Shown here piece after piece: positions 3,355-55,745 of a DNA stretch of 64,000 bases (position 1 is its first letter; each line of letters opens with the position of its first letter). The stretch comes from an uncultured Eubacteriaceae bacterium (lineage in GTDB: Bacteria; Bacillota; Clostridia; Eubacteriales; UBA1433). The position numbers and the translations under genes were made by a program. The notes under the pieces are model-generated. The model was not told the DNA's origin and did no database searches. It worked only from the letters and a program-made list of their open reading frames with translations. Location: contig CAZHMK010000005.1 of the NCBI GenBank assembly GCA_964533615.1, positions 141,218 through 205,217 of the forward strand, read 5' to 3'.

Positions 3355-3381
3355 AAAGAGAGGGCTGCCCTCTCTTTTTTT
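3355..3381. terminator. Hairpin with flanking A/T runs (possible bidirectional terminator)
   Basis: Stem aaagagaggg-ctg-ccctctcttt followed by a T run. Confidence 0.45.
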
Positions 3382-3398
3382 ATGAGTAATCAATCATT

Positions 3399-3660
3399 TT
3401 GGCGGGCGTGGGCAGGATCGTTACCCAAAAACTTCCCTGTCGGATTTTTTTAAATACGTTCAGAAAACGTCCCAAGATTTGCAGAAATATTCACAGTAAT
3501 CTGGTTGGATGGGTATCTTATATATATTATTTATTCTATTTATTCCAACACCCGCCCGGCCGGATCTTTCGACTGCGCTCAAGATGACCTCTTTCATCTT
3601 TATTTTTGTATAAGACAACCGGGGGTATCATTCTGAGCATATCCGCGGAGTTGATTGGAT
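3399..3660. repeat. Dispersed repeat family, cluster 1 (inverted doublet, reverse configuration)
   Basis: Contains a diverged core (ccctgtcggattttt..cgttcagaaaacgtcc). It is followed by ccggatctttcgactgcgctcaagatgacc (3559-3589), a spacer, and the inverted core atcattctgagcatatccgcggag (about 3624-3650). Confidence 0.8.
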
Positions 3661-14689: not shown

Positions 14690-15065
14690 GAGGGGCTGTG
14701 ATATATTTTATAAGCAAAACCATTCCGCCGGATTCGCAGGCGTGCTCAGAATGACGGTGTTAGGTTTTACGATATGTATTGTTAAGAAGATCAAAAGAAT
14801 AATTTGCCAAAGCTTGTTTGCATTACAGAGTATGTGCCGTTCATTGCCGGATTTACAAATGATGTTTGCAAGGATGTTATTCTTATTTTTCAATTCCTTT
14901 TTTCAATACTTTAAACTCATCCCCTTTCCTCCATCCAACCGGATCTTTCGACTGCGCTCAAGATGACCCTGCTGTTTTCTGTTTTATATGGTTGATATGA
15001 TGATCATCATTGAGAAAGCCCGCCTTATCAGATTCGCAGGCTGCGCTCAGAATGATACTGCCTTG
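14690..15065 (+). repeat. Dispersed repeat family, cluster 3
   Basis: Cores at about 14721-14757 (gattcgcaggcgtgctcagaatgac), 14936-14969 (ccggatctttcgactgcgctcaagatgacc) and 15019-15058. Confidence 0.8.
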
Positions 15066-35002: not shown

Positions 35003-35827
35003 TTATACAGGATTTAAATTCGGAGAATAGAACATTACTTCTGTTCCTTTGTAAGAGGTATTCGCACTGTATTTAATAGTATATTCTCTACTTATATAAT
35101 CTTGATAAATTTGTTTTATTTCATCAACGTTATCATATGTTACTATCCATTTATGATTAAGTTTTGCTATTTCTTTTGCTAATGTAATATGATTATTTGT
35201 ATCATAATAATTCGTATATAGTTCTTTGCCCTTATAAAAATAAGGTGGATCTAAAAAAATAAATATATTATTATGATTGTCTAATTGATGAAAGAATTCA
35301 ATTGCATCTAAATTGTAAAAATGTATTTTGTCTTTATAACTATCAATTAAATTTAATTTTTGCAGTATACTTTTTTTGTTAAATCTACAATTTAATTTAT
35401 AATTCCCGTTTTGATTGTATCCACCAATAGGCCCAGCAGTTATTATACCTGAATGATTCGTTCTATTCAGAAATAATGTTGAAAAAGCTAATTCAAATAA
35501 CTCGGCTGTGCTTTTGTTATTTTGAATTTCTTTTTGTTTATACCATTCATTAATAGTTATGTCCGTTGAAATTATTTTTTCACATAGTTTGTCATTATTT
35601 GTTAACACTGTATTCCAAAAAGCATAGATACTTCTGTCAATATCATTAAGAATGATATTGTCTACAACTTCATTATTTAACAATGCCAGGGCTAAACCGC
35701 TCCCACCTGCATATGGCTCAACATATGTACATCCTAATAAATTATTTTTTTCAATTAGACTTTGTGTATAATTATATAATTGTGTTTTGCCACCAGGGTA
35801 TCTTAATGGCGATAATGTTATAGGCAT
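35003..35827 (-). CDS. Dam-class (D12) N6-adenine DNA methyltransferase
   Basis: LRYPGGK, EPYAGGSG (AdoMet motif) and FLDPPY (catalytic motif IV). RBS aaggag. Confidence 0.9.
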   Translation of the reverse strand: MPITLSPLRYPGGKTQLYNYTQSLIEKNNLLGCTYVEPYAGGSGLALALLNNEVVDNIILNDIDRSIYAFWNTVLTNNDKLCEKIISTDITINEWYKQKEIQNNKSTAELFELAFSTLFLNRTNHSGIITAGPIGGYNQNGNYKLNCRFNKKSILQKLNLIDSYKDKIHFYNLDAIEFFHQLDNHNNIFIFLDPPYFYKGKELYTNYYDTNNHITLAKEIAKLNHKWIVTYDNVDEIKQIYQDYISREYTIKYSANTSYKGTEVMFYSPNLNPV

Positions 35828-35886
35828 ATTAAGCTCCTTAATATAAATGTTAGTATAAAAATTTTATTATCATTAAATATTTCAAT

Positions 35887-37242
35887 TTATTTTGACCAGA
35901 GAATAGTAATTAAATTAGAAAAATTATCCCAAGTCAGCAATAAATCTTTTGGGATAGGATTAAAATTTTTGTTATGTACATATGAATTGAAAGTTCGCAT
36001 TGAGAAAATACTATTTTTGTTGGAAATGGCAATATCCATTGGTTTTATTGCATCATTGGTTAATGATTGTTTTCCTTTAACATCATTTATCACTTTTGAA
36101 AATTTATTTCTTAAGTTGTCATCTATAGAATAATTAATATTATTTATATCTAAATAATGTTCTATCGATAATTCAATAAAAACCCTAAGTAAAACAGCCA
36201 CAGCATTTGAATATTTTTCGATTTCCATACTTCTAAGCTCGAAATATATATTATTTAATCTATTATCTGTAATGCTCAATTTATAATTTGCCGGAATCAA
36301 TGTATTGCGTTCATACGAAGGTTTAATATTCCGTTTATGCATAATTTTGGAAGTATCAGTTATCTTTTTATCAGCACTTTCTTCTAATACAGGTGTTACA
36401 TTATTCATACTTTTTTCAAATGGCAATACTTGATTAGATTGTAAATTTGTATTTTCAATTGTTTTAGCCTGCAAATTAGATTTAGCAGAAAGATTATGTA
36501 TGAATTCTTCTATGGCAGGATTATCATAAACAATTTTAACAGTTTTACCTTTTAACTCATCTGCAATAGTTTTAATTTTTGATGCAAATTCTTTTTCATC
36601 ATTAATAATTAATTGACCATTTTTATAATCAAATTTAGCAAAATTTTGAGTAATTGGTCTGGTTAAAATTCTCTCCCAATTAGTTCTTGTAACTGAATTG
36701 ATTTCATTAGAAGTTAAATATTTATTTTTTTCTAAAAAATTTAGTGTGTTTTGCAAAGGTGTATTATGGCCTCTTAAATACTTAAATCGATCCTTTTGAG
36801 TCGAACCCCAAGTAATTAAACCTCGGCCGCTGTCTTCGCCAATATGCCTTCGCTCTAAAAAAATCATAAGCTGTTCTATTTCATTTTCTTTAAAAATAAA
36901 GGCAGGAATTTCATTTCCATAAGATATATCAGACAAACTTAAAGAGGAAAATTTTCTAAAATATTTTTTATTAGTTTTTATTAAATCAGGATTTGATAAT
37001 ATTTTTAACGCAGTAATTCTTCTATTGCCATCATAAACAGTGAGTTTATTATTATATTTATATACAGCAATCGTTTCTATTATTCCATTTTTGCATATAT
37101 CTTCAGCTAATTTATATATTTTATCGGGCAATGTTTCAATCATTTTTTCTATAGATAATTTTTCGTTATCTAAGGGTTCAAACCTAGGATTTTCATTCCA
37201 AAGATATAAGTCACTAAGTTTTATATAATCAAGTTCAGGCAT
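35887..37242 (-). CDS. ParB/Srx-fold N-terminal domain protein with unassigned ~300-aa C-terminal region
   Basis: LWNENPRF and VYDGNRRITALK are ParB-type motifs. The C-terminal helical region carries MRTFNSYVH (R-x6-H). RBS ggagg. Confidence 0.7.
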   Translation of the reverse strand: MPELDYIKLSDLYLWNENPRFEPLDNEKLSIEKMIETLPDKIYKLAEDICKNGIIETIAVYKYNNKLTVYDGNRRITALKILSNPDLIKTNKKYFRKFSSLSLSDISYGNEIPAFIFKENEIEQLMIFLERRHIGEDSGRGLITWGSTQKDRFKYLRGHNTPLQNTLNFLEKNKYLTSNEINSVTRTNWERILTRPITQNFAKFDYKNGQLIINDEKEFASKIKTIADELKGKTVKIVYDNPAIEEFIHNLSAKSNLQAKTIENTNLQSNQVLPFEKSMNNVTPVLEESADKKITDTSKIMHKRNIKPSYERNTLIPANYKLSITDNRLNNIYFELRSMEIEKYSNAVAVLLRVFIELSIEHYLDINNINYSIDDNLRNKFSKVINDVKGKQSLTNDAIKPMDIAISNKNSIFSMRTFNSYVHNKNFNPIPKDLLLTWDNFSNLITILWSK

Positions 37243-37299
37243 ATTTACCTCCGCATTGATATATTTAATTATAGCAAAAAAGTATTAGTTAATCGATAT

Positions 37300-39054
37300 T
37301 TAAAATAGAAGGTTTAATTTTCTATTTTCATTGTCTGTTGTTAAAGCAAGCATGGATATTAATTCTATATTTTGATTTTCGAAATTGTTTCGTTGGGGTC
37401 TATATGTTAAATCTTCGTCTGAGATAGATTCAATTAAATAATGAGGAGCCAAAGCATTATATGATATAAGAAATTCAGAATTAAAATTAAAAATTTCTTC
37501 GGTTCGTTCATTTAATATGTACTTAAAAATATTATGATTAGTATCAATATAAAAATATTTATAGTAATTATTAAACCATTCTTTTTGTTTTTTTCTTGAT
37601 CTTGTTGGGTATGGATTACAAGAACTTATAAAATGATCTTTTGTGTAAGTATTATATCGATTTAATGTCCAAAACTCGTGCTCATCTTCTAAATTATCTA
37701 AAAATTGATAAATGTATTTTTCTGGATTTAAATTGCTAGGTAAAAAAGTAATATTTTCAGGGAAGTCAGTTTTATTATAAGACCTCATTAATTTTTTCAA
37801 ATTATCACGTGCATCACCATCTAATAAAAGTATTGATGTATTTATCTCTTCAATACTTTCATTCAAAAATAATCGAATTAATTCATTACATCCTAATTCA
37901 GTTACTTTAATATATATATTATTTATAAAAATAGGGGCTAAAAGATTTAATGCTATTATTTGCGCTTCATTATCTTCGACAAATACTTTAATTTTCGGGA
38001 GTTCTTGGCTTATTAAGTTTAAATGATTTTTAATAGATAAAAAAGGTGGATTAGATTCAGATGTTATTTTTGTTGAATTTTTTCTTAAATAAATTATTTC
38101 AATATTATCATGAGTTTTTTTATCTTTTATAGAATTTTGTCGCATTTGATAGCTTTCTTCAATAATATGTGTAGAGTGAGTAGTAATGATAAATTGAATG
38201 TTATCTTTTGATGCAATTCGATTTAAAAAATTTATTAAATTTTTTTGTACTGGAGGATGAAGTGATGACTCTATTTCATCTATTACGAATACGGCTCCTT
38301 TATAATCGGTTCCTTGTTTTGATTTTACTCTTCTAATAGATAAAATCATTAGTAGTATTTTTCCTATTACATCTTCGCCAGATGACATAGATCTATAATC
38401 TCTATTCTCAAAAATTATATTAGCGGTATATTTAATACTAGATTTTAATGAGGATATCTTTTTAATATGTTCTCGTTTTAATAATATTTCATTATACCAA
38501 TTATGATATAAATTTAATTCTTTTTCATCAAGTTGAATTTCGGAAATTTTTATGCTTTTATCATCTATTTTTGATAAAGGAAATAATCTGTCTAAATACA
38601 ATGCCGCAACTGGTATGTCTTTTATGAAACCGCTACCTTTTGTTCTGGTTTCAGTCCAAACTCTTAGTTTTTTTGCTGATGAGTCTTTTCTTAATTCAGA
38701 TTTATAGGTATAAAAACCATTTTCGTTTATTTCAGTATTTAAAAAATTAATTTTTGCCCATAAACAATCTTCTTTATCATATTCTGGGTATGCTAATTTT
38801 ATGTTTTTTTCAAATTTTCCTTCTAAATATTGTCCATCGATGCTTATATAAGTTTTAGGTGGATATTTTTGATTTGCACTTTTCCTCGAATTATTAAATG
38901 GTTGTATGAGTAAACCTAGTATTGTAGATTTCATAGTACCATTATAGCCAGAGATTATAGTAATATTCTGGCCTAAAGTTATTTCAAAATTTTTTAAATC
39001 TCTAAAATTTGCTTCCAAACTTTTGATTATCATAAAAATTCCTATCGCTTTCAT
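37300..39054 (-). CDS. OLD-family-like protein: ABC/SMC-type ATPase plus C-terminal Toprim/DUF4435-like module
   Basis: P-loop ISGYNGTMKST, Walker B VFVIDEIESSLHP and IITTHSTH. The C-terminus has KVFVEDNEAQ and ILLLDGDARD acidic motifs. The alternative start Met 39033 fits family N-termini (MIIKSLEANFRDL). Confidence 0.65.
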   Translation of the reverse strand: MKAIGIFMIIKSLEANFRDLKNFEITLGQNITIISGYNGTMKSTILGLLIQPFNNSRKSANQKYPPKTYISIDGQYLEGKFEKNIKLAYPEYDKEDCLWAKINFLNTEINENGFYTYKSELRKDSSAKKLRVWTETRTKGSGFIKDIPVAALYLDRLFPLSKIDDKSIKISEIQLDEKELNLYHNWYNEILLKREHIKKISSLKSSIKYTANIIFENRDYRSMSSGEDVIGKILLMILSIRRVKSKQGTDYKGAVFVIDEIESSLHPPVQKNLINFLNRIASKDNIQFIITTHSTHIIEESYQMRQNSIKDKKTHDNIEIIYLRKNSTKITSESNPPFLSIKNHLNLISQELPKIKVFVEDNEAQIIALNLLAPIFINNIYIKVTELGCNELIRLFLNESIEEINTSILLLDGDARDNLKKLMRSYNKTDFPENITFLPSNLNPEKYIYQFLDNLEDEHEFWTLNRYNTYTKDHFISSCNPYPTRSRKKQKEWFNNYYKYFYIDTNHNIFKYILNERTEEIFNFNSEFLISYNALAPHYLIESISDEDLTYRPQRNNFENQNIELISMLALTTDNENRKLNLLF

Positions 39055-40229: not shown

Positions 40230-40510
40230 GATAAAAAAACAAAAGGGGTCATCTTGAGTGCAGTCGAAAGATCCGGCGGGTTGGGGTTGGTATGAGTATT
40301 TTGTGAAGAAGATAATCTGCCCCGCCAGATTCTTCGACTATGCTCAGAATGACACCAAGGTTCGGGTGGTGATGTTGGTCTGCACATACTATATAAGATA
40401 GCCGTCCCGCCAGATTCTTCGACACGCTCAGAATGACACAGGCCCATCAGATTCGCAGGCACGCTCAGAATGACACCGTCCCCAAGGTTCGGCTGGCAGA
40501 GGTTTTATCC
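40230..40510 (+). repeat. Dispersed repeat family, cluster 5
   Basis: Inverted variant ggtcatcttgagtgcagtcgaaagatccgg (40246-40277), then cores at 40318-40354, 40404-40439 and 40442-40476. Confidence 0.85.
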
Positions 40511-40556
40511 GCACCGTAAATATTGTACTGATGATGTATGCCCGTAAAATGTTTCA

Positions 40557-41432
40557 TTAAAAGATGCCCGGGAGCCAGTATGCAAGCATATAGCCTAGGA
40601 TGAAAGAAGCGGCATTGGCTGTAAGCGCGTATATGCCCGGTTTGAAAGCGGAAATCTTTTTTTCGCTGTATTTTCGCAAATACCAAGTATAAAGCACGGC
40701 TTCTATAATAAACACCGCAATTTCCAGCAGAACATAAAAAATCATAAAAGCCAGAAATCCGGAGTAATGGTCGATGATGCCAAGCGTGATATTGAGCGCA
40801 ACCTGCGTGAATACGTTGACGAGGACGATAAAGCGAAAGAGCTTCTTTTGTCGAAAACCAAACAACAGCGCGATGAGGAGCTCTATAGCGATCGTAAGCA
40901 GGATACGAACAAAGAGGGAGAGAATTTCATTGGTATAGTTATAAGACTTTGTTACGGTCATTTGCGCATTGTCTTGCGCCGGGATATCGGCGGTGAAATA
41001 GCTGTCGAAAGCATATCGCTCTAAAGGCTCACTGCTGATGAGAAACGTGTCCGTATCGGGGAAGTATAGCAAAATTTTGAAGCGCTGCGGCGGATAATAG
41101 GTCCAGCTGAAACGCTGCGTTTGAGAGCAATCTTCAAAATATTGCAGAAAATAGAATCCGTCCGCATCTTTATACTGCGCGAATTTCAAAAAAACGTCAT
41201 ACTCTTCGTCGTCTTGCTGATAGCGTGCATAATCTGCATTGTCTTCGCTTAACGCCGAATACGGACCCGTGGATTTTTCGCTCGAAAGCAAAGTGGCATA
41301 ATAAGAATGGCCTTCAAGTCCGCTGAAATCAATGATAACAGAAGGCTTCGGGCCCACATCCGCATGAGAGGTGATAGGGAACACAATCAGCAGGGCTAAG
41401 GCGCAAAGCAATATGGAAACTATTTTTTTCAT
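40557..41432 (-). CDS. Hypothetical membrane protein
   Basis: Signal peptide, an extracytoplasmic domain of about 150 aa, then about 4 TM helices. Confidence 0.65.
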   Translation of the reverse strand: MKKIVSILLCALALLIVFPITSHADVGPKPSVIIDFSGLEGHSYYATLLSSEKSTGPYSALSEDNADYARYQQDDEEYDVFLKFAQYKDADGFYFLQYFEDCSQTQRFSWTYYPPQRFKILLYFPDTDTFLISSEPLERYAFDSYFTADIPAQDNAQMTVTKSYNYTNEILSLFVRILLTIAIELLIALLFGFRQKKLFRFIVLVNVFTQVALNITLGIIDHYSGFLAFMIFYVLLEIAVFIIEAVLYTWYLRKYSEKKISAFKPGIYALTANAASFILGYMLAYWLPGIF

Positions 41433-41574
41433 AACATTTTTCCTTTATCAGAGTTATTTTACAAAAAAGGAGCAAAATTGGTACTTATGTTATTTGTTAT
41501 AAAGAAAAGCGTCGCTGTTTATGTAGAGTATATATTTTTTCTTTGAGTTTAACAAGTCAGGCTGAATGGGGATA

Positions 41575-41845
41575 GCCTAATTATTATTGCGAGAGAGTCT
41601 GCCCCGCCAGATTCACAGGCACGCTAGTGACACCAGCCCCAGGGTTTGGTAGGTGCTGGGTCTGTTTGAATTGCAGAATACACCTACTCCTACCAGATTC
41701 TTCGACACGCTCAGAATGACACTGCCCCATCAGATTCTTCGACTATGCTCAGAATGACACCGCTTCATCAGATTCGCAGGCACGCTCGCAGTGACGCCAG
41801 CCTCTTGTATGATAAAAATAGAGAAAGTCGTCTTGAACGAGGGCT
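41575..41845 (+). repeat. Dispersed repeat family, cluster 6
   Basis: Cores at 41600-41633, 41688-41722, 41724-41760 and 41763-41797, plus a degenerate inverted unit reaching the stop codon of 41844..42500. Confidence 0.85.
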
Positions 41846-42500
41846 AGATGTATTTACTGCCTTCTTTGATGCTCAGCTTTGAAAGCTTGTATTCGTATTT
41901 GGCGATGAAGCCTCTTACCCATGCGGGATCGGTTTTGCTGTATTCTCTCAGACTCCAGCCGATGGCTTTATTGATAAAAAATTCTTCCGTGCCGAAGTTG
42001 TTGCAAAGTATTTTTAAAAGCAGTCCGGTATCGGTTTTTTCTTTTAGGCCGAGCTGGTGCAAAATAGCTGTGCGGCGCAGCCACATATTCTCATCCGTGC
42101 TCCACTTTATCATCATGTCGGATACGTGCGGATAGGAAAGAGAAAGCGTGCCGAAAAGTTTGCTTAGGATATCGACCGTATCCCACCACGATTTTGTGGT
42201 GAGGAGCATCTTCAGCTGAGGGATATCGGCGTCTGTGAGATATTTTTGTTTTGAGAGGACATAGTCGGAAGCGATGTACTGCGCTTCGCGATAGGGCTTT
42301 TCCCAGCAGATTTTCACAAACTCCCAGTCGATGTGTTTTTCACCTCTGACGAGTTTGAAATACCGATTTGCTATTTTTCTTCGCGCAGCGCTTTGTATGC
42401 CCAAAAAGGGAAACAGGTTTTTCATGTAAGCGCTCATGGCGGCGGCGGTGGATTTGTTTTCCGATTTTTCAAGTTCTTCAAACAGGGTTTCGTACCACAT
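41844..42500 (-). CDS. DNA alkylation repair protein (AlkC/AlkD-type HEAT-repeat family)
   Basis: AAAMSAYMKNLFPFLGIQSAARRKI and WWDTVD...NMWLRRTAIL..INKAIGWSLREY are typical of this family. Confidence 0.8.
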   Translation of the reverse strand: MWYETLFEELEKSENKSTAAAMSAYMKNLFPFLGIQSAARRKIANRYFKLVRGEKHIDWEFVKICWEKPYREAQYIASDYVLSKQKYLTDADIPQLKMLLTTKSWWDTVDILSKLFGTLSLSYPHVSDMMIKWSTDENMWLRRTAILHQLGLKEKTDTGLLLKILCNNFGTEEFFINKAIGWSLREYSKTDPAWVRGFIAKYEYKLSKLSIKEGSKYI

Positions 42501-42539
42501 GGTTTGCTCTCCGTTTTTAGAATATTTTAGATGAATTAA

Positions 42540-43052
42540 TCATTCATGATAGTAATCATTTTGCCACTGCAATGGATTTGAATGAATATATTCCTTGATT
42601 TTATCATAATCTTTCTGACCACGGATAATATGGTCATGAAAAGAACGCTGCCATAACGGTCGACCATATTGCTTAGAGGTGATGGTTTTGAATGAATTTA
42701 TTATTTTAGATATGGAGATTGTAGGGGACGCCGCCCACGGCGTCCCGTCTTTTTGTAATAAAATAATCATATGAATATGATTAGGCATAATAACATATGC
42801 ATCAACAGACACATGTTTATATACATCAGGGATGTTTAATACTATTTTTTGAACCATCTCACCGGTAGGGCTCAATATGATCTGCGGGAGGCTGTAGGCA
42901 GCCTCTCCTACGTTTTCTTGAGCGAGATATCCTTCATCCCATAAAATTGCTTGTCTATCTTTGGTGCAGATGGTTATAAAATAGGCACCATTGCTGCTGT
43001 AGTCGTAATCGTGCAAGCGGTTGGCTTTTCGGGTAGGTTGTTTATTTAACAT
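42540..43052 (-). CDS. IS200/RAYT-like Y1 (HUH) transposase-family protein
   Basis: YFITICTKDR, the HUH motif in YVIMPNHIHMIIL, WQRSFHDHIIR and EYIHSNPLQW. 170 aa. Repeat arrays lie on both flanks. Confidence 0.8.
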   Translation of the reverse strand: MLNKQPTRKANRLHDYDYSSNGAYFITICTKDRQAILWDEGYLAQENVGEAAYSLPQIILSPTGEMVQKIVLNIPDVYKHVSVDAYVIMPNHIHMIILLQKDGTPWAASPTISISKIINSFKTITSKQYGRPLWQRSFHDHIIRGQKDYDKIKEYIHSNPLQWQNDYYHE

Positions 43053-43194
43053 TTTTAACCTGTATAAATAGTTTATTTACTATTATTTTACAGTGAATGT
43101 GTTATTTAGTAAAGAAAGATAATGGCAAAATGATATAAATGAATGAGTAGGCATAATGCAAGGGATATCGTTGATATGTTTAGGGTATAGAAAA

Positions 43195-43812
43195 TATTTT
43201 TCACGCCAGATTGGCAGGCATGCTCGCAGTGATGCTCGTCTCGTGTGTTGGCGTTTGTATGTCGATTTTGTAAAAAGGATGCGAGAGAGCGGGAGGCTGA
43301 GGGCAGCCTCCCCTACGGTTATGTATTCCATTTGATATTTGATTTGGTAAATGGCAAGATTTATAAGCATGTTGGTCTGATTATTTTATAGAGAATACCC
43401 ACCTTGCCAGATTGGCAGGCATGCTCGCAGTGACACAAACCCCTTGTTTGATAAAAACGAGAGGGGTCATCTTGAGCGCAGTCGAAAGATCCGGTGGGTT
43501 GGGGATGGTATGAATATTTTATGAAGAAGATAATCTGCCCCGCCAGATTCTTCGACACGCTCAGAATGACACTGCTCCCAGGGTCCGGTTGGAGTTGGTC
43601 TGCTTGAATTGCAGGATACACCCACTCCCATCAGATTCTTCGATACACTCAGAATGACATTGCGCCGCCAGATTGGCAGGCATGCTCAGAATGACACCGA
43701 CCCATCAGATTCTTCGACTATGCTCAGAATGACACTGCCATTCAAGGTTCGGGGGGCGTTGGTATGAATATTTTATGAAGAAGATATCTACCCCATCAGA
43801 TTCTTCGATATA
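43195..43812 (+). repeat. Dispersed repeat family, cluster 7 (about 8 cores including one inverted doublet)
   Basis: Cores at 43201-43234, 43398-43436, inverted 43463-43494, 43536-43572, 43626-43660, 43663-43697 and 43700-43736, plus a truncated one at 43790-43810. Confidence 0.9.
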
Positions 43813-49904: not shown

Positions 49905-50700
49905 GTTTGCTATGCATAATTTTATATAAGATACCTGTCCCGCCAGATTCTTCGACTGCGCTCAGAATGACACCGTCCCCAGGTTTTTGATGATGTTCAG
50001 AATGACACCGTCCCCAGGGTTTGATTGGTGTTGGTCTGTTTGAATTACAGGATATACCTGCCCCGCCAGATTCTTCGACACGCTCAGAATGACGCTGCCC
50101 CCAGGGGACGGTTGGTGTTACTCTGTTTGAATTACAGGATACACCTGCCCCGCCAGATTCTTCGACTACGCTCAGAATGACATCCACCCGTGTTTAACGT
50201 GAGGATGGTTGAATAATTTTATATAAGATACCTGCCCCGCCAGATTCGCAGACACGCTCGGAGTGACACTGCCCCTGGAGTTCGGCTGATGTAGGTCTGA
50301 TTATTATTGCGAGAAAGCCTGCCCGTCGGATTCGCAGGCTGACACAAGTCTCTTGTCTGATATAAAAAAGAACGAAAAGGGGTTATCTTGAGCAGGGTCA
50401 AAAGATCCGGTGGGTTAGGGATTAGGCATAAGAAAGTAAGAAAGATTGAATGTGGGTTGGATCGATGTGCAAAATTTGATACATTAGAGAGCAGTTTGAT
50501 AATTTTATATGAAATACCTGCCCTGCCAGATTCTTCGACGCGCTCAGAATGACACCGGTCTCAGGGTTCGGTTGGAGTTGGTCTGTTTAAATTACAGAAT
50601 ACACCTACTCCCGACAAGATTCTTCGACTACGCTCAGAATGACACCGTCCCCCGGGTTTTTGATGATGTTCAGAATGACACCTGCCTCAGGGCTCGTATT
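49905..50700 (+). repeat. Dispersed repeat family, cluster 8 (largest, about 11 cores)
   Basis: Cores at 49936-49972, 49984-50008, 50058-50094, 50146-50181, 50232-50269, 50318-50345, inverted 50378-50410, 50518-50554, 50607-50645 and 50655-50680. The array ends about 20 nt before the GtrA stop codon. Confidence 0.9.
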
Positions 50701-55299: not shown

Positions 55300-55745
55300 G
55301 CGAAAGTCTTCTACATATTGAGAGAAGAGTGTTGGAGGGGGTATGATGACGTGAAGAAAAACCGTCCCCGACAGATTCTTCGACACGCTCAGAATGACAC
55401 CTGCCTCTTGTCTGATATAAAAAAAATGAGGGGGTCATCTTGAGCAGAGTCGAAAGATCCGGTTGGATAAGGATGGGGTGTGAGAGAGCGGGAAAGATCG
55501 GGGTGTAGGCTGGACTGATATGCAGAAGCTGATGTGTTCGAGGATGGAGAAGGGTATAATTATTTGAAGAAGAAAAACCGTCCCCGACAGATTCTTCGAC
55601 ACGCTCAGAATGACACTGCCCCCTGGGTTCGGTTGGTGTTGGTCTGTTTGAATTACAGGATATGCCTAGTCCCGCCAGATTCTTCGATACACTCACAGTG
55701 ACACTGCCCCCGGTTTTTTGATGATGTTCAGAATGATAGCTGCCC
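55300..55745 (+). repeat. Dispersed repeat family, cluster 10
   Basis: Cores at 55364-55400, inverted 55432-55462, 55579-55616, 55669-55705 and 55712-55738. Confidence 0.9.

Follow-up and report, generated by a model that had tools for sequence, protein, structure and literature searches.

A RAYT-type gene with three GTAGG hairpins of its own, and the apparently separate CAGATT arrays beside it, in an uncultured Eubacteriaceae bacterium

Introduction

Here, we focus on a small Y1 transposase gene in a 64,000-nt stretch of DNA from an uncultured Eubacteriaceae bacterium (positions 141,218 to 205,217 of contig CAZHMK010000005.1, assembly GCA_964533615.1; hereafter the window). The gene lies between two arrays of a short repeat with the core CAGATT. 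An original prediction took the enzyme for a tyrosine transposase associated with repetitive extragenic palindromes (REPs), i.e. a RAYT, that mobilises or maintains the CAGATT family. The first part of this proposal is supported by the present analysis, and the second part is not. It is probable that the enzyme is a RAYT of subclass 2.4 whose cognate REPs are three GTAGG-footed hairpins at the gene itself, and that the CAGATT arrays are a separate, GIY-YIG-derived family that came to flank the gene through an insertion or deletion (indel).

What is set right here is a tempting yet mistaken match between an enzyme and the most conspicuous repeats next to it. The cognate repeat of a RAYT is recognisable by its GTAG foot and hairpin, and in the clade described here it can be recognised from the gene's own sequence. 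As the substrate of each enzyme can be read from its own gene, the joint evolution of RAYT and REP specificity is opened to direct tests. Two side results are worth following, namely the two-site in-gene REP pair that evolves in concert and a repeat associated with GIY-YIG genes.

Identity of the RAYT protein

The open reading frame (ORF) of the gene carries the motifs MPNHIHMII, WQRSFHDHIIR and EYIHSNP. The HUH and C-terminal Tyr motifs are present as originally described, both in the sequence and in an alignment of 25 homologues (alignment A1), in which H92, H94 and Y155 are invariant. The ORF passes the gathering threshold of the Pfam family PF01797 Y1_Tnp (30.6 bits against a threshold of 23). 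Among NCBIfam models its best family by far is NF047646 REP_Tyr_transpos, with a score of 72.9 bits (E 2.5e-20) that lies below the curated equivalog cut-off of 80. When the family profile is compared with PDB structures, E. coli TnpA_REP (4ER8) is matched at 2.8e-11 and the IS200-type structure 2EC2 at 0.0024. The protein is placed by this comparison closer to TnpA_REP than to IS200 TnpA, and Tyr155 aligns with the Tyr of YIYINP in 4ER8.

The predicted fold agrees with the sequence. An AlphaFold2 model (pLDDT 77.6, pTM 0.76) retrieves 4er8_A as the top Foldseek match (2.1e-8), followed by the transposases of IS608 and ISDra2, and the top 30 PDB matches are all Y1 transposases. With 4ER8 best by both sequence and fold and with the Pfam match, the proposed RAYT-type Y1 identity is borne out, and the protein is supported as a single-domain Y1 enzyme that is related to IS200, belongs to the RAYT branch and is not an insertion sequence (IS). 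More than 4,000 relatives of the protein are found; the exact protein occurs on 18 metagenome contigs, in one genomic context throughout.

The residues that would read the REP are retained. According to Quentin, Siguier, Chandler and Fichant 2018 (BMC Genomics 19:475, PMC6006769), the GTAG foot is contacted in E. coli TnpA_REP by W94, Q95, E100, H101 and R104. The corresponding residues of the window protein are W134, Q135, D140, H141 and R144, and in alignment A1 these positions show W, Q, D/E, H and R with no or almost no variation. The structural model has three stretches of low confidence: the N-terminus, residues 49-55 and residues 103-109, the latter two being loops with pLDDT below 50. 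These two loops coincide with the two protein segments encoded by the REPs described below.

REP hairpins at the RAYT gene

A textbook REP consists of a GT[AG]G foot and a palindrome. The REPs of the window combine a GTAGG foot with a GC-rich stem of 9 bp and a loop of 4 nt. Three GT[AG]G-footed hairpins of this kind, which the original prediction overlooked, lie within about 1 kb of the RAYT gene, at 42721, 42911 and 43316 (Table 1). A scan of the 64 kb for GTAG next to a GC-rich stem yields three strong and mutually related GTAGG hairpins, all at the RAYT gene, and a stricter scan for GTAGG hairpins returns exactly these three copies. The upstream REP is the sole GTAGG hairpin outside the RAYT ORF in the window, and it shares its orientation and stem class with site 1. 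Sites 1 and 2 are in frame and in opposite orientations, with the HUH codons between them: site 1 lies about 120 nt before these codons and site 2 about 70 nt after.

All three sequences fold better as single-stranded DNA than shuffled versions of themselves. The folding energy is -8.7 kcal/mol for site 1 (z -4.0), -13.2 kcal/mol for site 2 (z -4.7), and -11.2 kcal/mol for the upstream REP (z -3.5); in each case none of 200 shuffles folds as well.

Based on the homology with E. coli TnpA_REP (4ER8), a mechanism can be proposed. The RAYT and its three REPs would form a minimal REPtron, with one REP upstream and two in frame inside the ORF. The enzyme would bind the REP hairpin on single-stranded DNA, read the GTAG foot via W134, Q135, D140, H141 and R144, and cut and rejoin the strand through Tyr155 with a metal bound by the HUH motif.

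In-gene REPs across homologues

The homologues of the gene were surveyed at 80 loci fetched from reference genomes, mostly metagenome-assembled genomes (MAGs) of Oscillospiraceae, Acutalibacteraceae and other Clostridia. In nearly every homologous gene, the coding strand carries a GTAGG hairpin at a distance of about 120 nt ahead of the HUH codons, and a copy in the inverted orientation follows these codons at about 70 nt. In the 25-homologue alignment both REP-coded segments stand at conserved positions. The segments vary between proteins and correspond to each other inside one protein. For example, VGDDAHIVP is paired with GTMWASSPT and VGEDIILPP with GRMISSPT, each pair being one DNA sequence read both ways. 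At the 61 loci with a single gene, site 1 and site 2 of the same gene differ on average at 1.6 of 19 variable positions, and in-gene REPs of different genes at 10.4 of 19.

The stems covary as base pairs. Among REPs pre-selected for at least eight of nine pairs, 126 double-change cells are counted against 32.8 in shuffles, and none of 500 shuffles reaches as high a count. Stem positions use up to four pair types, and sliding the register lowers the paired fraction to 34-56%.

The synonymous sites were examined in a test anchored on the protein alignment and not on hairpin detection. At site 1, the codon of V48 is GTA in 69 of 71 Val codons (background 0.32) and that of G49 is GGG in 69 of 70 Gly codons (background 0.29). 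At site 2, P110 is encoded by CCT in 67 of 73 homologues (background 0.24). Since the synonymous positions of V48 and G49 are fixed, the constraint acts on the DNA word GTAGGG and not on the amino acids. The wobble pairs on the GTAG-bearing strand point in the same direction. G-T occurs 7 times at site 1 and 7 times at site 2, and A-C 3 times and 0 times; such an excess of G-T is the pattern expected of a DNA-strand element and not of an mRNA structure, the counts being small and the copies non-independent, so that this is weak evidence.

The number of copies at a site is also variable. Two scored REP copies lie at one site in the loci L074 (site 1) and L077 (site 2), and the protein of L056 has three repeated REP-coded peptide units at site 2. 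Many homologue loci also have dispersed REP copies. Of 111 GTAGG hairpins in the flanks, 37 have at most four mismatches to the in-gene REP of their own locus, and the rest belong to other classes. The survey shows that the in-gene REPs are DNA-level elements in two surface loops which evolve in concert within each gene. Concerted evolution could come about if the in-gene REPs are replaced by the current REP type of the genome, in a manner that may be RAYT-mediated or recombinational.

Several loci show further variation. In L027 and L071 an additional REP of another class follows site 2. Where REPs are duplicated or added in frame inside RAYT ORFs, the loops are 10-40 residues longer and the frame is intact. 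In L012, L015, L022 and L038 two RAYT paralogues lie 1-2.5 kb apart, each ORF with its own REP class.

Table 1. Features at the RAYT locus of the window, and GIY-YIG genes of the sister-species locus L005 (L005 coordinates in the last line).
Feature	Position	Strand	Basis or remark
RAYT / TnpA_REP-like Y1 HUH gene, 170 aa	42540..43052	-	Pfam, NCBIfam, PDB profile, fold
HUH codons His92-Ile93-His94	42771..42779	-	read off sequence
Codon of putative catalytic Tyr155 (EYIHSNP)	42588..42590	-	read off sequence
In-gene REP site 1	42886..42911	-	GTAGGAGAGGCTGCCTACAGCCTCCC on coding strand; VGEAAYSLP, aa 48-56
In-gene REP site 2, in the opposite orientation to site 1	42721..42746	+	GTAGGGGACGCCGCCCACGGCGTCCC on non-coding strand; GTPWAASPT, aa 103-111
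Extragenic REP, 238 nt upstream of RAYT start codon	43291..43316	-	GTAGGGGAGGCTGCCCTCAGCCTCCC
AlkD-like DNA alkylation repair gene	41844..42500	-	PF08713 DNA_alkylation, 225 bits
CAGATT-core array ('family A'), 4 units	41599..41802	+	nhmmer
CAGATT-core array, 6 full units and 1 partial	43201..43810	+	nhmmer
Inverted variant unit GGTCATCTTGAGCGCAGTCGAAAGATCCGG	43465..43494	+	inside array 43201-43810
26-nt module, two copies	43507..43532, 43761..43786		resembles region upstream of sister GIY-YIG gene
GIY-YIG genes of sister L005 (YYVYILTNKTNTVLYVGVTNDL...)	1695-1979, 3355-3639	-	inside CAGATT arrays

The CAGATT arrays

The CAGATT repeats were searched with an nhmmer profile built from 25 copies. 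The presence of repeat cores on both sides of the RAYT gene is confirmed, and the inverted unit lies among those of the upstream array (Table 1). For the exact core, 9 matches within 3 mismatches are found against 0 expected. The profile has 36 matches in the window, of which 35 are on the plus strand and one, a weak 22-nt partial, is on the minus strand. The co-orientation of the cores noted originally is extreme.

The arrays are not specific to the RAYT gene. They occupy at least 10 intergenic spots of the window, whatever the orientation of the flanking genes, including arrays near 7.4, 14.7-15.1, 22.2, 40.3, 46.9, 54.0-54.4 and 55.4-55.7 kb. The original prediction described the two arrays beside the gene as the densest; they are among the densest and are not unique in this, since an array at 49935-50686, away from the RAYT gene, holds 9 copies.

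The units also lack the features of a REP. The 43-nt consensus CTGCCCCGCCAGATTCTTCGACACGCTCAGAATGACACTGCCC has no GTAG. Folded as single-stranded DNA on either strand, CAGATT units do not exceed shuffles (z -0.01 to +1.94); when folded as RNA, an array of 341 nt shows no structure beyond shuffles (z +0.85), and a scan of the whole window at Rfam gathering thresholds finds no family. A REP or REPIN is marked by a GT[AG]G foot, a stable imperfect palindrome and, commonly, inverted dimers, and the CAGATT arrays differ from it in these respects.

Two candidate structures were set aside. A REP-like or structured-RNA nature of the arrays was dropped, as their folding equals that of shuffles. A weak 5-bp ATTCT/AGAAT stem with tandem G-A pairs, looked for by eye in the core, is unsupported by energy calculations.

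The distribution of the family across loci was examined as well. In a larger database, nhmmer finds 33 members in the window and 27 in the locus L005 of the sister species introduced below. Elsewhere, three isolated copies occur in two loci, and the other 78 RAYT loci have none (1.19 Mb for all 80). The gene's homologues are thus widespread in the absence of the repeat, and the co-occurrence of RAYT and repeat expected under the original pairing is not found in these loci, which cover ±10 kb around the gene. With no foot, no hairpin and no specificity for the gene, the units do not bear out the role of the RAYT as their mobilising or maintenance enzyme. The CAGATT arrays appear to be a separate repeat family, neither REPs nor cognate to the RAYT.

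Five copies of the variant unit GGTCATCTTGAGCGCAGTCGAAAGATCCGG, which approximates an inverted CAGATT core, are present in the window: at 3560-3589(-), 14939-14968(-), 40247-40276(+), 43465-43494(+) and 55433-55462(+). Three of the five copies edge CAGATT arrays on the left, resulting in an inverted-repeat layout there.

An indel inside a single array

The genome of a sister species (GCA_964581565.1; loci L005 and L006) accounts for the position of the arrays. In L005, the counterpart of window positions 40443-41728 runs directly into the counterpart of 43406-43721. It follows from this continuity that window positions 41729-43405, which hold the AlkD-like gene, the RAYT gene and the upstream REP, are an indel relative to L005 positions 5071/5072. 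At each end of the indel, the break point is no more than two or three bases from where a CAGATT unit starts, and the two arrays beside the RAYT gene are one continuous array in the sister genome. Recombination between co-oriented CAGATT units would explain such an indel. The flanking of the RAYT gene on both sides, which had been read as a REP/RAYT arrangement, is thus accounted for by an indel within one array.

The sister species has a RAYT gene of its own. It is 86% identical, lies at L005 10001-10504, about 5 kb away, and is in the opposite orientation. Homology between the two orthologues is confined to the ORF, and their flanks are unrelated; the neighbouring genes of the two genomes are 92-96% identical. 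Identity within the ORF is mosaic: the part before site 1, counted from the start codon, has 75.8%, the stretch enclosed by the REPs 96.9%, and the remainder up to the stop codon 92.7%. A 9-nt indel lies directly 5' of the GTAG. This break of identity at site 1 suggests, from one pair of sequences and as a single case, that recombination may have taken place at the in-gene REP.

A GIY-YIG gene as a candidate partner of the arrays

The gene that is found inside CAGATT arrays is of a different kind. The sister species has two identical 94-aa stand-alone GIY-YIG genes, both inside CAGATT arrays (Table 1), and window positions 40247-40330 are the orthologous empty site, in which the array is kept and the GIY-YIG gene is replaced by about 75 nt. 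This filler has copies at 43465-43532, and its parts are the GGTCATCTTGAGCGCAGTCGAAAGATCCGG unit and the 26-nt module.

GIY-YIG genes were also examined outside this lineage. An alignment of GIY-YIG homologues was scanned against metagenomes, resulting in 80 loci (L088-L167, 268 kb) with flanks of ±2.5 kb. Many of these genes, by eye, have the unit TGTCAT[TC]C..GAGC...GAAG.ATC upstream and its inverse downstream. Within 250 nt on the upstream side of the gene, TGTCAYY has a density of 3.76/kb, compared with 0.15-0.45/kb beyond 500 nt; for RRTGACA the values are 4.32/kb within 250 nt on the downstream side and 0.3-0.5/kb at distance. The units are locally enriched 10-20-fold, and both motifs are present at 29 of the 59 genes for which both flanks are available. 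No RAYT gene was found in the 80 GIY-YIG loci, and no GIY-YIG gene in the 80 RAYT loci outside the sister species.

It appears most likely that the CAGATT arrays either derive from a GIY-YIG-associated element, without containing its gene, or are targets of such an element, a term which is a working grouping and not a published family. In the form that we propose, the arrays would be derivatives without a gene, similar to miniature inverted-repeat transposable elements (MITEs), of a small element around the 94-aa GIY-YIG nuclease gene; the AlkD-like and RAYT genes would have come to lie between two arrays only through a local indel that has direct repeat units at its borders. A literature search found no description of an association between GIY-YIG genes and such repeat units. 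If the association is true, it would explain a very common source of spurious ORFs and of assembly breaks in metagenomes.

One sister-species sample differs in the region of the two GIY-YIG copies. The ApbA gene that lies between them in L168 and L169 is missing in L171, which is consistent with a deletion by recombination between the duplicated elements.

Relation to known systems

Y1 proteins are divided into 12 subclasses by Quentin et al. (PMC6006769). Their TnpAY1 subclass 2.4, the equivalent of the Group 4 RAYTs in Bertels et al. 2017 (PMC5581495), is described by the motifs NH[IFV]H, WQ and YIxNNP, by an 8-aa insertion at alphaB together with a variable one between beta3 and alphaC, and by long REPs in which the foot is GT[AG]G and three G-C pairs form the stem base. 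The same paper already reports in-frame REPs inside tnpA_REP genes of the subclass.

The protein of the window shares NHIH and WQ, the insertion of about 8 aa at alphaB and the variable insertion between beta3 and alphaC. Site 1 (aa 48-56) is located at the alphaB insertion, and site 2 (aa 103-111) follows the HUH strand. The canonical long GT[AG]G-footed REPs, in frame within the gene, are a further likeness, and so may be the gene copy number, which is low in subclass 2.4 (the exact protein of the window has one genomic context across 18 contigs). The Y motif is YIHSNP in the window protein and YI[DE][TN]NP in the homologues. From its sequence features, the protein appears to fit the signature of subclass 2.4 or RAYT Group 4, and an in-gene REP is a known phenomenon.

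There are also differences. The published set of subclass 2.4 is mainly from Cyanobacteria and Bacteroidetes, whereas the clade studied here is from Clostridia (Oscillospiraceae and Acutalibacteraceae MAGs). According to the text of that paper, insertions lie 'generally between HuH and Y', and the one at alphaB is regarded as a small domain; in our clade, in contrast, the alphaB insertion is a REP copy that is inverted relative to the second one, and both evolve in concert. Almost no dispersed REPs are seen in the 64 kb of the genome studied here. Relative to this text, the survey adds that the alphaB insertion is a REP, that the two sites are fixed and inverted, that they evolve in concert with covarying stems and frozen synonymous sites, and that a large clade of Clostridia, comprising more than 60 species, shares these features.

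Compared with E. coli TnpA_REP (YafM, 4ER8), which is the best sequence and structure match, the protein has the same fold and catalytic motifs, a predicted GTAG-footed hairpin substrate and the same contact residues for GTAG (W, Q, E replaced by D, H, R), although identity is only about 20%. The REPs of E. coli are extragenic, number in the hundreds and form inverted pairs that flank the gene, whereas two of the three copies in the window are inside the ORF. With the TnpA of IS200/IS605 elements such as IS608 and ISDra2, the protein shares the HUH/Y1 fold and the mechanism of hairpin recognition on a single strand; it differs in its Y motif, in a score below the family cut-off, and in having no IS ends, no tnpB and, across the 18 contigs, no multicopy behaviour.

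The GIY-YIG genes resemble GIY-YIG homing genes and MITEs in that a small nuclease gene is bracketed by short conserved units, in that gene-less arrays are found elsewhere, and in the occupied and empty sites of sister genomes. In contrast to GIY-YIG homing endonucleases, the 94-aa protein is a stand-alone domain without a DNA-binding extension, and its match to the group I intron endonuclease model is weak (25.6 bits, cut-off 56). An intron or intein context is missing as well, and the units here are tandem and co-oriented.

Preferred explanation and alternatives

The explanation that we consider probable joins a RAYT of subclass 2.4 and three cognate GTAGG REPs with separate, GIY-YIG-derived CAGATT arrays and an indel that explains the flanking. 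Several observations weigh against it. On the side of the RAYT, the NF047646 score falls short of the curated cut-off, the Y motif is YIHSNP and not exactly YIxNNP, and sites 1 and 2 of the window differ at 6 of 26 positions, which makes this gene an outlier among the homologues (two of the changes are compensatory pairs). A dispersed REP population is not visible in the lineage, the three copies in 64 kb all being at the gene, and 20 kb of the sister species is without any GTAGG REP outside the RAYT gene. The predicted activity of the RAYT on REPs in this genome may be low or vestigial, judging from these sequences. The REPs entering the covariation count were pre-selected for pairing, and the co-occurrence tests covered ±10 kb around RAYT genes and ±2.5 kb around GIY-YIG genes, not whole genomes. 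On the side of the arrays, a search of the 64-kb window finds no GIY-YIG gene, and in this lineage the CAGATT units flank the GIY-YIG genes as direct and not as inverted repeats. That the GIY-YIG protein has a role in moving the units, we infer from position only.

A more far-reaching version can also be formulated, which we regard as rather unlikely. It holds that the inverted pair in the ORF is not passive debris but a REPIN with a spacer that encodes the HUH strand. In each RAYT of the clade, the two REPs would serve as master substrate copies, would be homogenised by the enzyme, both mutually and with the REP class of the genome, and would act as recombination break points at which RAYT genes are reshuffled. 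In the window gene, the rise of identity to the sister orthologue from 76% to 97% falls exactly at site 1, and only the ORF has moved. Separately, the CAGATT family would represent an undescribed, phylum-spanning mobile class that is borne by GIY-YIG genes and has MITE-like derivatives.

The arrays could instead be host elements, such as protein-binding or regulatory sites, or a preferred landing site of a homing GIY-YIG gene, and not derivatives of it. We hold this alternative to be unlikely. The window has 35 units without a GIY-YIG gene, the sister species has only two copies of the gene, and the units are direct repeats here instead of terminal inverted repeats. Against it, one module of the arrays is similar to the sequence that precedes the GIY-YIG gene, and forward and reverse units tightly bracket GIY-YIG genes in many unrelated metagenomes.

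It is improbable that the in-gene hairpins are ordinary conserved protein motifs or regulatory mRNA structures acting on translation or stability and not REP DNA. V48, P110 and T111 are indeed near-invariant in alignment A1, both segments would fold as mRNA hairpins too, and REP hairpins upstream of IS200-type genes are reported to damp expression (discussed in PMC3733652). However, the synonymous positions are fixed (GTA-GGG, CCT), whereas the residues in between are free to vary and show base-pair covariation. Matching sequences also lie outside genes in the same loci, the copy number at the sites varies by tandem duplication, and the segments are disordered loops in the structural model. 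In an mRNA, the G-T wobbles at site 2 (G-T 7, A-C 0) would become C-A mismatches, a point which relies on few and non-independent cases.

The original pairing, in which the RAYT mobilises or maintains the CAGATT family as an atypical, co-oriented REP/RAYT system, is now very improbable. It would account for the location of the gene between two arrays and for the presence of both gene and arrays in the two sister species. The 35:1 strand bias would be expected of single-strand HUH transposition into one replication template, and atypical, non-GTAG structures are reported for RAYT subclass 2.6 and class 3. Yet the units have neither a GT[AG]G foot nor a hairpin above background, equally dense arrays lie far from the gene, and 78 of the 80 homologue loci (1.19 Mb) are without units. 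The protein keeps the residues that read GTAG and carries GTAGG REPs of its own, the indel inside a single array explains the flanking, and the gene that is found inside arrays is the GIY-YIG gene.

That the ORF is the transposase of an autonomous IS200/IS605 insertion sequence can hardly be maintained: it has a Pfam Y1_Tnp match, and only the ORF, not its flanks, is at a different position in the sister species, but it scores 27.1 bits against the NCBIfam IS200 model NF033573 (cut-off 55), its Y motif lacks Y---Q, the locus has neither subterminal hairpin ends (the absence of IS ends having been stated from the outset) nor tnpB, the gene stays in one place across 18 contigs, and the protein is closer to 4ER8 than to IS200-type structures.

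Neighbouring genes

The AlkD-like gene does lie between the array and the RAYT ORF, as originally described (Table 1). It adjoins the RAYT gene at a distance of 40 nt on the downstream side. In the comparison of loci, no AlkD-like gene is present beside the RAYT orthologue of the sister species. The AlkD-like gene is a passenger or neighbour, outside the RAYT/REP system.

Another difference between the two genomes is found elsewhere in the window, at 35003-39054(-), where a segment of 30% GC encodes a D12-class methyltransferase, a 451-aa protein without a Pfam match and a 584-aa ATPase (AAA_15/AAA_21). This segment looks like a defence-type island. In the sister species, its place is taken by a GIY-YIG gene and arrays.

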